Assembly (NCBI GenBank): GCA_963703345.1
Contig: OY969814.1
Span: forward strand, 448,001-512,000
Source of the DNA: an uncultured Chloroflexia bacterium
GTDB taxonomy: Bacteria; Chloroflexota; Dehalococcoidia; DSTF01; JALHUB01
DNA length: 64,000 bases
Reading direction: 5' to 3'
Shown: piece by piece, positions 38,659 through 44,001 of the stretch
How the letters are laid out: the number at the start of each line of letters is the position of its first letter
Position numbering within the stretch: the stretch's first letter is position 1
Program-made: the position numbers and the translations under genes
Notes under the pieces: model-generated
What the model saw: the letters and a program-made list of their open reading frames with translations, nothing else
The model's database searches: none
What the model was told of the DNA's origin: nothing

Positions 38659-40749
38659 TCAGGGGTTAGCGTCTTGCGGGCCGGTCGTGGACGGAAGGCC
38701 GGCGACGAAGAGGGAATCGCCGTTGAGAACGTAGAGGCGAGCGGTCACTTCGTCGACGGCCACAGCCTGCGGGTCGGTCAGTTGGCTGCTGACGAACTGG
38801 CGCTGGAAACGGCCGTCGCCGCTGAAGAGGACGATGCGCTTGTTACCCCGGTCCACCACCAGCAGTCCGCCGTCGGACAGCGGCAGCAACGACGCCGCGG
38901 AGGTCAGCGGCCTGTCCAGTCCCGCCATATCGAAGGCGACCTCTTGTCCGGCGGAGAAGCGGCGTATGCGCCCGTCTTCGCCGAGAACGTAGATGTCGCC
39001 GTTCACCGCCAGCCCGGTCGCGCCGGAGAGGTCGGACCCTTCGAGCGAAGCCTTCGGCTCCCGTGCCGTGCCGTCTTCGGCCGCCGGATAGTGCCACACC
39101 TGGCCGCTCTGCTTGTCGAGGACGTAGAGGCCATCGTCGCCGGCCGAGAGGCTGTCAAGAGAACGCCATTCGCCGTCGCCGCCCAGCGTGAGCGGCCGTG
39201 GCTCGGCGTCAGGGCGCAGTGAGAAGAGTTGGTGCTCGCTGTCGAGGACGAGCAAGCTGCCGCCGTCGACATCCGGCAGCCAGGCGATCTGGGCGGGCGT
39301 GGCTGCCTTCACCATTCCGACGAGGTCGCCTTCGTGCAGCACTTCCTTCGTCTCGCCTTCCGGAGCGCTCAGCTTGACCGAGACGACCCGGTTCTTCTTG
39401 GCGTCAAGGAGATATGCCTGCCCACCCCCGACGACGAGCTGCTGGAGCGCGAGGTCGCCCGTGAGCTGCGTCTTCAAGTCGGCGAGCAGCCGCAGGTCGG
39501 TGAGCTCCTGGACGCCGTTCATCGTCGCCACGGCCGCGGCCACTTCGCTTTTCAAGCTGAGAAGCCCGACATCGCCGGCGCGAATGCCCTCGGCCTCGGC
39601 CACGCTGCTGCTCGCCTCGTTGAGTAGACGGCGCTGCTCCGACGGGTCGGAGGCGGAAACCGAGGAGTTGTAGTCATTCCTGGCCGTCGTCAGCAGGGAG
39701 TCGAACTTCTGGTCGCGCGTCCCCTGGATCGAGCTGGGCATCACCCACCAGGCAAGCAGCCCGATGACGAAGACGAGGAGAGCGGCCGGCAGCAGCCAGA
39801 CGGGGAATCGTTTCGTGAGGCGGCTCACCGGCGCCGGCCCGTTGTGACGAAGCCCCGGCTGCGAAGCCCTCAACCGCACCGTCTGACGACCGGGCTCCGG
39901 CGCGCCGACGGCTACCGGCGCCAGCTCCAGGGGCGACAGCAGATGGAAGTCCGTTTCGTTGTCCTCTTCGTATGGCTCCGGCTCGCGGCGAAGAGATGAC
40001 GGCGGCGAGGGATCGGCAGCCGGCGAGACGGCGATGGGCGCTGCCTCTGCGGGCAGGCAGGCCGGCGCGGTTTCCCTCACTCCAGCCTCCTCTTCCGCCT
40101 CGAAGCAGCTCAGGAGGAATACGGAGAAGTCCGGTTGGTCGCGGGTGAGGAGATAGAGCTCGGAGAGCGTCTCTTCCGCGTCCAGCGCCAGCAGCGAGCG
40201 AACGTGCTCATCGTCGACAACTTCGGCCAGCGCCGGCGAAGAGACGAGGAGGAGGTCGCCGGGCGAGAGCTCGTAACGCCGCAGTTGCGGCCGCAGCTCG
40301 TCGCCGAGGCCGAGAGTGACGGCGGCCTGCGGGTCTTCGGCGATGAGGCGGGTAACCGAGTCCTCATGGCGGAAGTAGGCCAGGCTGGGTCCGGCCTGGG
40401 CGAGATAAGCGACCGTCCCGCGAAGGACAAGACAACTCAGGCCCGCGCCTACCTGGTGCTCGCGCAGGCTGCGGCGGTTCCAGTCGCGCAGGTTCTCGTG
40501 GGCGGCGCTTATCGCCTTCGTCAGGGCGCCGGTTATAGAGAGGTTCTGCCGCTCGAAGAGGTGGCCGACGACGGCGACGAGCTGGCCGCAGAACTCCTCG
40601 CTGCCGGGAAGGGCGGGCTGCGCCAGGACGTAGAGGTCGATGGGTTCTTCGCCGGAGGGATTAAGGCTGAACTTCCCTTGCCAGGGTCCGGCTTGCTGCG
40701 CCTGACCCCGCACGATGCCGAACTGCCCCACCCAGGTCCTGACAGCCAT
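38659..40749 (-). CDS. Membrane protein: degenerate PP2C-like domain, TM, extracellular NHL-like beta-propeller
   Basis: [12 protein letters not shown] and [11 protein letters not shown] resemble PP2C. One TM, then repeated YVLD/LVVD strands. Confidence 0.65.
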
Positions 40750-40885: not shown

Positions 40886-40915
40886 TTGCGTGGCGTCCGT
40901 TCGCCATGCTATTAT
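40886..40915 (+). promoter_or_regulatory. Putative promoter of the polyamine operon
   Basis: TTGCGT-N18-TATTAT with extended -10 TG. Confidence 0.45.
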
Positions 40916-41067: not shown

Positions 41068-41547
41068 ATGCACGTTACAATCGACGGGTACGGCGGTGAC
41101 CCCCAGAAGCTGGCCGACGAGAACCTGGTGCGCGCGTTCTTGGACCTCTGCCCTTCGGCTATCGGGATGACCAAGATCGCGCCACCTTACGTTTGCCGCT
41201 ACGTTGGGGCGAAGCCGGAAGACTGGGGCGTATCGGGCTTCGTCCTCATCGCTGAAAGCCACATCTCTGCCCACACCTTCCCCGACCACGGCTACATCTG
41301 GGTGGACGTCTTCTCCTGCAAGAGCTTCAACGCCGAGCAGGCCATCGACGAAATACGGCAGCGATTCCAGCTCAGCGATTGGCGCGTCCACACCCTGCTG
41401 CGCGGCCTGGAGTTTCCGCACAGCGTGACGGAAGCCCTGCCGCTTGCCAACTCGGAACGCCATCGGGTCGCCGACTCCCTGCAGGACCTGTCTGACCGCA
41501 GGCGAAGCGTGGGGGCCAACGCGGCCCGCCCCTTGTTACCATCCTGA
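41068..41547 (+). CDS. Pyruvoyl-dependent decarboxylase of the S-adenosylmethionine decarboxylase (SpeD/SpeH class 1b) family; substrate uncertain
   Basis: [19 protein letters not shown] (ESH self-cleavage site) and DVFSC. Confidence 0.88.
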
Positions 41548-41576
41548 CGGCTGCTCATCTCCCGGGAGACTCGCTC

Positions 41577-42629
41577 GTGGACGACCTCTTCCATTCTCGC
41601 GTCCGGCCGTTCTCCGTCGGCTGTCCCATGACCGCGGCGCAGCTTCTCGACGCTATGGGCGGCACGGCCTTCCAGGCGCGCAACCTGGCGGACGCCGCGC
41701 GCATCTGGTCGCGCATGCTCGAGGACGACGTCGTCATCATGTTCGGGCTGGCCGGCGCGATGGTGCCGGGAGGAATGCGGAAGCTCGTCGCCTATCTGAT
41801 CGAGAACCGGCTGATCGACGTCCTAGTGAGCACGGGCGCCAACCTGTTTCACGACGTCTACGAGACGCTGGGCAAGCCGCACTATCAGGGAAGCGCCGAG
41901 TGCGACGACCACGAGCTCGGCCGCCGCCGCATCAATCGCTTCTACGACGTGCTGGCCCCTGAGGCCGATTTCTCCGCCGCCGAAGAGTTCATCACCCAGT
42001 TCTCGTTCACCCTTGATGGCTCGCGCCCCTACAGCACCCGCGAGTACTTCCAGCTTCTCGGCGAGGCGCTCCTGCCGGTGGCGCAGGAGGAAGGCATCCT
42101 TACCGCCGCTGCCCGTCGCGGCCTGCCGGTCTATTCGCCCGCCCTCGGCGACAGCGTCCACGGCCTGGCGATAGCCGTTGGACGCGTGCGCAGCGCCCGT
42201 TCCGGCCAAACGCGCCCGCCCGTCCTCTTCGATATCATCGGCGACGTGCTGGAGACTGCGCACATCGCCGCCACCGCGCCGGCGACCGGCGTTATCTACG
42301 TCGGCGGGGGCACGCCGAAGAACTTCATCCAGCAGGCGGAGGTCGGCGGCTACATCTTCCGGCGGGAGCTTCCCGGCCACAAGTACGCCATTCAGGTGAC
42401 GATGGACCAGCCGCAGTGGGGCGGCCTGTCCGGCTGCACGTTCGAAGAGGCGCAGTCCTGGCGCAAGATCGCATCCGATGCGACGATGGTGACCGTGAAC
42501 GTGGAGGCGACCGTCGCGCTGCCGCTCATCGTCAGCGCCCTGGTCGAGAGCAGCGCCGCGATCATCGAGAAGCGCCGCCCGCCGGCGATCAGCTTCGACG
42601 GCATGCTCGGCGCCTGGCGCGAAGGGTGA
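41577..42629 (+). CDS. Deoxyhypusine synthase-like protein (SpeY-like)
   Basis: GLAGAM, STGAN, GGGTPKNF, GGLSG and EAQSWRK (catalytic Lys). Confidence 0.92.
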   Translation: MDDLFHSRVRPFSVGCPMTAAQLLDAMGGTAFQARNLADAARIWSRMLEDDVVIMFGLAGAMVPGGMRKLVAYLIENRLIDVLVSTGANLFHDVYETLGKPHYQGSAECDDHELGRRRINRFYDVLAPEADFSAAEEFITQFSFTLDGSRPYSTREYFQLLGEALLPVAQEEGILTAAARRGLPVYSPALGDSVHGLAIAVGRVRSARSGQTRPPVLFDIIGDVLETAHIAATAPATGVIYVGGGTPKNFIQQAEVGGYIFRRELPGHKYAIQVTMDQPQWGGLSGCTFEEAQSWRKIASDATMVTVNVEATVALPLIVSALVESSAAIIEKRRPPAISFDGMLGAWREG

Positions 42630-42637
42630 GCGCGACG

Positions 42638-43519
42638 ATGCGGAAGGAGTTATTCTACCCGCCGTTCGGCTTCCTCGCGCCCGAGCCCGACTTCACTGCT
42701 TTCGAGACCGCCCGCGTCGCCGTCCTGCCCGTGCCCTATGACGCCACAACGACGGCCCGCGCCGGCGCCCGCAACGGTCCAGCCGCCATCATCCATGCCT
42801 CGCAGGACCTGGAGCCGTACGACTTGACCATGGGCTTCGATACCACACGTCACGGCATTCACACCCTGCCGGAGCTGGCGCCTCACAGCGGCAGCCCGGA
42901 CGCGATGGTCGCCAGAGTCGAAGCGGCTGTGAGCGACCTCCTGGCGGCCGGCAAGTTCGTCGTGACGCTCGGCGGCGAGCATACCGTCGCGGTGGGCGCC
43001 GTGCGCGCTCACGCCCGTCGCTATCCCGACCTCTCGGTGCTCGCCATCGACGCTCATGCTGACTTGCGCGACACGTACCTGGACTCGTCGTACAACCACG
43101 CCTGCGTATTGCGGCGTGTCGTCGAGACCTGTCCCGTCGTTATGGTGGGCATGCGGAGCGTTAGCGCCGACCAGGTCGAGTTCATCCGCGAGCGCGGCTT
43201 GACGTTCCTCACCCCCGCGGCCTATCGTGCCCTCCCCGACGGGCCCGGCGAAGTCGCCCGGCATCTGTCACCGAACGTTTATGTCGACATCGACCTCGAC
43301 GGCATCGACCCGGCGCAGATGGCGGCGGTGGGCACGCCGGAGCCGGGCGGCCTCTTCTGGGATGAAGTGATCGCGCTCCTGACGGGGCTGGCCGTGACGA
43401 AGAGGATCGTCGGCTGCGACCTGACGGAGCTGGCGCCCGACCTGGGTCCGCCGGCCTGCGCGACGCTGGCCGCGAGGCTCGCGCAGCGGCTCATCGGCCT
43501 GGCGTTGGGGCCGCCTTAG
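42638..43519 (+). CDS. speB: Agmatinase/ureohydrolase
   Basis: GGEHT, DAHAD, DIDLDGIDP and GTPEPGG motifs. Confidence 0.9.
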   Translation: MRKELFYPPFGFLAPEPDFTAFETARVAVLPVPYDATTTARAGARNGPAAIIHASQDLEPYDLTMGFDTTRHGIHTLPELAPHSGSPDAMVARVEAAVSDLLAAGKFVVTLGGEHTVAVGAVRAHARRYPDLSVLAIDAHADLRDTYLDSSYNHACVLRRVVETCPVVMVGMRSVSADQVEFIRERGLTFLTPAAYRALPDGPGEVARHLSPNVYVDIDLDGIDPAQMAAVGTPEPGGLFWDEVIALLTGLAVTKRIVGCDLTELAPDLGPPACATLAARLAQRLIGLALGPP

Positions 43520-44001
43520 CTTACGGCGCCCTTCGCTTCTTCCTTCATTGCCCGCAACTGCTCCAGGTGGCCTTCGGTGTGGGCGATCATGAGCTCCATG
43601 CCTGTCCGAATCGTACGCGGGCCGTGCTCTGGATGGATTCCGGCGCGCTCCCAGTCGCTCGGCGCCAGCGACGACAGTTGCCCCGCGATCTCCTGTCGAT
43701 TACGCTTGAAATCGGCGAGGACGGCGGCGAGATCGGCGTCCTGGTAGGCGCGCTCGCGGACGAGCTCTTCCTGCTCGTAGGTCGGCAACGTGGGGTTGTC
43801 CTGGGTCAGCATCAGCGCGAGCCGCCGCCGCCACATTTCCGAGTCGTCGCAGAGGTGGCCGCAGACCTCCTTAATCGACCACTCGTCCTCGGCCGGCCGC
43901 CGCCGCAGCTCTTGCTCCGACAGTCCGGCTACAACCGCGGCCACGCGATCGGGCAGCGTCCTGACCTTCTCGACGATCTCCTCGTTCTCCGACGTCATCA
44001 T
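43516..44001 (-). CDS. DinB/YfiT-family protein
   Basis: WSIKEVCGHL, GIHP and HTEGHLEQL motifs. Confidence 0.88.
   Translation of the reverse strand: MMTSENEEIVEKVRTLPDRVAAVVAGLSEQELRRRPAEDEWSIKEVCGHLCDDSEMWRRRLALMLTQDNPTLPTYEQEELVRERAYQDADLAAVLADFKRNRQEIAGQLSSLAPSDWERAGIHPEHGPRTIRTGMELMIAHTEGHLEQLRAMKEEAKGAVS

Follow-up and report, generated by a model that had tools for sequence, protein, structure and literature searches.

Gene Organization of the Locus

The window, i.e. the whole 64,000-nucleotide stretch analyzed, carries three intact and tightly spaced open reading frames on the forward (+) strand at 41068..43519, separated by gaps of 29 nt (speD-like/dhs) and 8 nt (dhs/agmatinase); the tight linkage of the three genes that was claimed in the original prediction is borne out. 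The first frame (41068..41547, +) encodes a 159-residue SpeD-like class 1b pyruvoyl decarboxylase (PF02675, E 3e-28), which is likely an arginine decarboxylase (SpeDA). The second (41577..42629, +) encodes a 350-residue homologue of deoxyhypusine synthase (DHS; PF01916, E 6e-87), a likely diagmatine synthase of the SpeY/CdmS-like kind. The third (42638..43519, +) encodes a 293-residue ureohydrolase of the agmatinase family (TIGR01230, 221 bits against a cut-off of 174), which likely trims diagmatine to homospermidine. A purine-rich stretch precedes the start codon of each gene. A longer, 169-residue start of the SpeD-like gene, given in a database entry (P0124), was rejected because a conserved ribosome-binding site directly precedes 41068.

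A promoter-like site (40886..40915, +) was read approximately 150 nt 5′ of the first start codon, consisting of TTGCGT and TATTAT spaced by 18 nt with a preceding TG, and may function as the promoter of the operon. Of 12 aligned upstream regions, 10 contain it in register, and the other two appear by eye to have a similar site further upstream; a consensus scan that required at least four of six matches per hexamer missed it. Neither a riboswitch (Rfam search, E ≤ 1) nor a terminator-like site was detected upstream of the operon. An upstream frame of 36 codons that closes with three Arg codons was considered as an attenuator or leader peptide and rejected, since close relatives conserve neither its length nor its frame. 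The operon is flanked on one side by a divergent gene for a 696-residue protein (38659-40749, −), which gave weak matches only (a PP2C-like part and an NHL repeat), and on the other by a DinB_2-family gene (43519-43998, −), which converges on and abuts the agmatinase stop codon; a scan as far as 43700 revealed no terminator-like site. One soil metatranscriptome contained transcripts of relatives only, mostly 85–95% alike, among which one contig spans the dhs-agmatinase junction and none covers the speD-like coding region.

Close homologues carry Dehalococcoidia as their source label. Among 151 genomes of the class that were searched, 39 bear DHS, and 22 of these show the same gene order with direct adjacency. 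In the loci titled Chloroflexota, the SpeD-like gene is found upstream in 28 of 30, both exceptions beginning at or near the end of the locus. This recurrence indicates that the arrangement of the trio is not a matter of chance.

Polyamine Genes of the Host Genome

The host genome is represented by one contig of 2.28 Mb with 95.85% completeness. The absence of speE, which the original prediction had noted for the window, was confirmed and extended to the whole genome, where PF01564 (spermidine synthase) gave no match at E ≤ 0.001; the same profile detected its family in 10 of 14 control genomes. The genome likewise contains no match to PF01862 (pyruvoyl arginine decarboxylase), PF01276 (AAT-fold decarboxylase), PF16653 (used as a proxy for HSS and CASDH), PF04371 (agmatine deiminase), or PF01861 (BpsA), and each of the profiles for absent families was matched in 2 to 10 of the 14 control genomes. 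Its sole PF02784 protein (alanine-racemase-fold decarboxylase) is LysA (452 bits, cut-off 298). The genomic check for speE and speA that had been proposed thus returned no speE and no arginine or ornithine decarboxylase other than the candidate in the operon. The SpeD-like gene is the only PF02675 match in the genome, the operon agmatinase is the only arginase-family match, and argininosuccinate synthase is encoded.

In the available text of PMC10407285, SpeDA is defined by a SpeD homologue occurring without speE or a canonical arginine or ornithine decarboxylase (ADC/ODC), together with SpeB or AguAB, and arginine decarboxylase activity is demonstrated for proteins from speD-speY-speB clusters. 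The same pattern was found here, with an intact class 1b SpeD, no speE, no canonical ADC/ODC, and SpeB present in a genome of the completeness given above.

The SpeD-like Decarboxylase

The processing residues S64, H69, and C84 are intact and align with those of T. maritima AdoMetDC, and the predicted fold matches 1tmi with an rmsd of 1.7. According to PMC10407285 (Fig. 8), a proline characteristic of true AdoMetDC is no longer conserved in SpeDA. Of two candidate prolines in the window protein, that of the P-x-G motif is replaced by D52, and that of the HTxP motif is retained as P72, a position that is variable among relatives. The protein might be supposed to be a true AdoMetDC whose aminopropyltransferase is unrecognized or missing; its TIGR03330 score (73.1 bits, just below the cut-off of 75.65), the kept HTxP proline, and the incomplete state of the genome would agree with this. 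Against this stand the lack of both PF01564 and PF01861 in the genome and a tree in which the protein was forced among canonical SpeD, which was rejected by the AU test (p-AU 0.037, quick tree). Together with the class-wide distribution described below, they make this supposition extremely unlikely.

The protein falls into one group with a SpeD of MW495066 (2477-5255), the second one in a speD-speD-speE-speB cluster, with 41% identity. That entry was deposited as Microcystis phage, places the cluster beside a glycosyltransferase gene, and may be bacterial DNA; its arrangement is like that described for Vampirovibrio.

Another possibility is that the protein is an ornithine decarboxylase (SpeDC) whose product is putrescine. 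It shares the FSCK ending with the SpeDC domains in Fig. S5 of PMC10407285, and one phage homologue takes both substrates according to the available part of PMC9992855. However, the SpeDC-diagnostic Gln, Thr, Phe, and Tyr around the cleavage site, whose positions were taken by eye from the text of the same Fig. S5, are matched in none of four cases, V59, E63, T70, and W78 being present instead. The usual neighbor of the gene is moreover an agmatinase. We therefore regard this possibility as very unlikely, and consider that the protein is likely an arginine decarboxylase (SpeDA) on the basis of its sequence and genomic setting.

Two SpeD Types Across the Class

On the basis of score and length of the match, the 148 SpeD hits in the 151 genomes were divided into 78 canonical and 63 window-type proteins; six divergent variants and one weak hit were set aside. 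The surrounding loci were retrieved for 57 of the 63 window-type and 39 of the 78 canonical proteins, and those displayed carry the expected motif. Canonical SpeD adjoins speE in 77 of 78 cases and window-type SpeD in 0 of 63. At E ≤ 1e-30, speE was matched in 78 genomes, precisely those that possess canonical SpeD; the 26 genomes with window-type SpeD only all lack speE at that threshold and all possess DHS. This threshold was set after viewing the list and drops weaker PF01564 matches in long frames in 6 of these 26 genomes, and all counts of the survey refer to related, non-independent genomes. Both types occur together in 37 genomes, where the window type is thus held on top of a canonical speD; this coexistence and the absence of adjoining speE both speak against a true AdoMetDC.

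Agmatinase lies directly 3′ of window-type SpeD in 23 of the 35 fetched loci in which SpeD is not directly before dhs, and is present in 20 of 22 speD-dhs loci. In non-Chloroflexota loci with DHS and agmatinase, a PF01862 arginine decarboxylase takes the place of the SpeD-like gene (5 of 5), while PF01862 occurs in none of the 30 Chloroflexota-titled loci. This swap for an unrelated arginine decarboxylase is the strongest hint to function that we obtained, and argues against the SpeDC alternative. The correspondence is incomplete, as window-type SpeD is also found in 2 of 11 genomes with PF01862 and is missing from 4 of 39 DHS genomes. An arginase-family match at E ≤ 1e-30 is missing from 6 of the 63 genomes with window-type SpeD, and the occurrence of the window type with speD-speE but no such match in six genomes is a point in favor of SpeDC.

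Several families depart from the common pattern. Nine genomes combine speD-speE with DHS (a subset of loci L004-L017: G008, G019, G027, G050, G087, G102, G117, and G146; also G083), and in eight of them the spermidine and homospermidine routes would then share the only arginase-family match present. Family f20 (L085, L087, L094, L108, L104, and L110) contains a divergent SpeD-like variant, which in four loci lies directly before a PLP-dependent decarboxylase of the alanine-racemase fold and in two forms a tandem with a window-type copy; an arginase-family match at 1e-30 is lacking in all six of its genomes. In family f38 (L088, L089, L093, and L102), window-type SpeD follows a DNA polymerase III delta′ gene; speD-speE is present, with no match to an agmatinase that would consume the agmatine. 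Family f73 (L179, L188, and L196) has a second, independent-looking dhs-speD-like-agmatinase cluster, in which the DHS is of the PRK00770 type and the SpeD variant carries Gln ahead of its cleavage serine. In family f17 (e.g., G015, G110, and G125), the genomes are approximately 3 Mb in size and each contain 10 to 14 genes of the arginase family.

The DHS Homologue

The catalytic residues K297 and E291 are kept in the DHS homologue. N249 occupies the His position of canonical eIF5A-modifying DHS, which we take to be residue 288 of human DHS. An enzyme of that canonical kind would also depend on spermidine, for whose synthesis the genome has no speE. At the two sites where CdmS differs from the human enzyme, the window protein has Leu (L197 for human Asp243, L284 for human Asp316). 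The column mapping is backed by the PRK02492-type rows, in which the Phe and Ser of CdmS are present in 5 of 5. By itself, Leu at the 316 position has no diagnostic value, because the archaeal DHS 7cmc also has Leu there. At the position of CdmS Ser67, the window protein has A61, and Ala is shared by 26 of 26 members of its clade and by 21 of 21 PRK00770-type proteins; Ser67 was proposed as the guanidino-binding residue from a model (PMC10981699, available text).

No NCBIfam model was passed at its cut-off, the scores being 365/434 for PRK00805, 228/500 for PRK02492 (G44G synthase), and 209/450 for PRK00770. The best models are of the archaeal type (PRK00805, then PRK02301), and PRK00805 is also the best one for relatives of the window DHS. 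Among the 14 control genomes, PRK00805 at E ≤ 1e-100 matches only M. acetivorans, and PRK02492 matches T. thermophilus and Caulobacter. The identity is 32–36% to PRK02492- and PRK00770-type proteins and 44–46% to the PF01862-linked relatives. In three trees, of which the first two were quick and built from different row sets, the window DHS stands apart from the PRK02492- and PRK00770-type branches; the deep order conflicts among the trees, so that no sister group or donor is claimed, and the PF01862-linked relatives may be called close by sequence identity rather than proven sisters. The synthase likely belongs to a branch of DHS that is yet to be assayed.

The genome has no match to PF01287 (eIF5A), and a motif search of the genome returned one EF-P, which has Arg at its loop tip, a position that presumably equals that of E. 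coli Lys34. With Arg at the tip, DHS could hardly modify EF-P in the usual way. These two observations disfavor the alternative, offered in the original prediction, that DHS modifies a protein target. In its most explicit form, DHS would put a guanidinobutyl group from agmatine on a protein lysine and agmatinase would trim it, as proposed for Haloferax aIF5A; the archaeal type of the best models would suit such a role, and the available part of PMC5178350 favors the two-step model in Haloferax, without in vitro demonstration. In addition to the missing eIF5A/aIF5A, the scanned loci, mainly those without the full trio, revealed no further gene conserved next to the cluster, and we judge a protein target to be most improbable. 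Equally improbable is a variant in which this branch, closest to the Methanosarcina and halophile models, transfers an agmatine-derived group to a lysine of a bacterial protein other than EF-P instead of coupling two agmatines, with agmatinase trimming it to deoxyhypusine, which would amount to bacterial deoxyhypusination.

SpeD-DHS Fusion Proteins

Among the 20 proteins listed in a search for longer homologues, eight clusters fuse window-type SpeD to a DHS domain, two of them named Ktedonobacterales; P0245 is a further fusion, in which both active sites are kept. The remaining fusion entries are P0401, P0405, P0407-P0409, P0412, P0413, and P0415, and L204 and L216-L230. The fusion was detected in frames of 492–638 residues in 34 of 34 genomes from three families of one order, likely Ktedonobacterales, and in a fourth family of the same order all 27 genomes match the decarboxylase part only. 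The segment with the catalytic Lys is missing from 24 of the 25 fusion proteins examined, which include a few near-duplicates. Their dead DHS domain is closest to the DHS branch of the window, and each of nine fusion-bearing genomes checked encodes a separate intact PRK00770-type DHS. The fusion ties the two families functionally, and hints at a possible physical coupling of the SpeD-like and DHS proteins.

Proposed Pathway

Metal-ligand motifs are present in the ureohydrolase. Taken together, we consider it probable, with good confidence, that the three genes make up a complete agmatine-dependent pathway to homospermidine, in which all three activities are assigned by homology and genomic setting. 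Self-cleavage of the SpeD-like protein at S64 would generate a pyruvoyl enzyme, which would decarboxylate arginine to agmatine. The DHS homologue, using NAD+ and K297, would join two agmatines into diagmatine (G44G), as its assayed homologues do. The ureohydrolase would then remove both amidino groups as urea, passing through aminobutylagmatine to homospermidine. Such a route would require neither SAM nor PLP.

The latter two steps follow a known chemistry. SpeY joins two agmatines into diagmatine, from which homospermidine is then formed by a ureohydrolase (PMC10981699, PMC13625781); in the available text of these papers, G44G was made by 7 of 7 SpeY genes tested (PMC13625781), diagmatine is the first intermediate for every assayed SpeY (PMC10981699), aminobutylagmatine arises only as the half-hydrolyzed product of diagmatine (PMC10981699), and G44G-specific ureohydrolases are shown, with no signature in their sequence being specified (PMC13625781). 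By this analogy, the DHS homologue is likely an agmatine-coupling diagmatine synthase of the SpeY/CdmS-like kind, and the agmatinase-family protein encoded with it likely trims diagmatine to homospermidine. The original prediction had drawn a SpeD-like arginine decarboxylase and a route from arginine through agmatine to homospermidine, which fits the genomic tests and the published clusters; the first intermediate, drawn there as aminobutylagmatine, is more likely diagmatine.

Agmatine might nevertheless be made for a different order of steps or another product. In such a scheme, agmatinase would produce putrescine, and DHS would join agmatine and putrescine into aminobutylagmatine, or yield some other polyamine. 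The window DHS indeed falls within neither of the two NCBIfam families whose names refer to homospermidine or G44G synthesis, and 28 of the 37 genomes that have speD-speE as well carry the SpeD-agmatinase pair in the absence of DHS, so that the agmatinase lineage is not tied to G44G. However, the SpeY proteins assayed in the available text of PMC13625781 and PMC10981699 all use agmatine alone, and the same sources report that G44G is hydrolyzed well by aminopropylagmatine ureohydrolases. A canonical agmatinase would also drain the agmatine substrate, and this scheme is accordingly judged unlikely.

If the diagmatine pathway is right, it extends this route to Dehalococcoidia, and a whole subfamily, which occurs in 63 of 151 genomes and which databases label “S-adenosylmethionine decarboxylase”, likely consists of arginine decarboxylases. 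The window DHS would also represent, in a bacterium without eIF5A, the branch nearest to the Methanosarcina-type model. It thereby offers a clean test of a question left open in the available text of PMC13625781, namely whether agmatine-dependent members exist among archaeal-type DHS.

Comparison with Known Systems

The canonical class 1b AdoMetDC, represented by T. maritima SpeD (PDB 1tmi/1tlu), has the same fold and the same Ser/His/Cys processing residues as the window protein. The latter differs in that a loop is inserted ahead of the cleavage site, Asp replaces the P-x-G proline, FSCK stands in place of FTCG, and a speE partner is lacking.

For the synthase, PRK00805 (Methanosarcina-type “deoxyhypusine synthase”) is the best-scoring model, yet the score is below its cut-off, and the aIF5A target of that setting is absent from the window genome. 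Our literature search found no paper giving the substrate of the PRK00805 family. Compared with Thermus thermophilus CdmS (caldomycin/diagmatine synthase; PRK02492), which works with SpeB (PMC10981699, available text), the window DHS shares the catalytic Lys and the Glu six residues before it, and both proteins have Leu at the human Asp316 position and a hydrophobic residue at the Asp243 position. Unlike CdmS, it has Ala for Ser67 and Leu for Phe204, scores less than half of the PRK02492 cut-off, and occupies a separate branch in the three trees. T. thermophilus also uses a PLP arginine decarboxylase, unlike the pyruvoyl type of the window. As in the SpeY/CdmS setting, an agmatinase gene adjoins the DHS gene, next to a putative arginine decarboxylase.

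The closest parallel is provided by the speDA-speY-speB clusters known from Ca. Marinimicrobia, Capsulimonas corticalis, Solirubrobacter, Ca. Woesearchaeota, and Ca. Sericytochromatia (PMC10407285, PMC13625781, available text). Dehalococcoidia is not named in the main text of either paper, and no report of the route in this class was found in a literature search that had most subscription papers outside its reach. The same three families are clustered in the window, with a SpeD homologue unaccompanied by speE or another Arg/Orn decarboxylase and with an agmatinase present; this match is drawn from gene content and genome pattern, and the host class differs. Since both the pathway and the gene arrangement are published, a specialist would not be surprised by the locus, and the window trio is likely an ordinary further case of these clusters in Dehalococcoidia.
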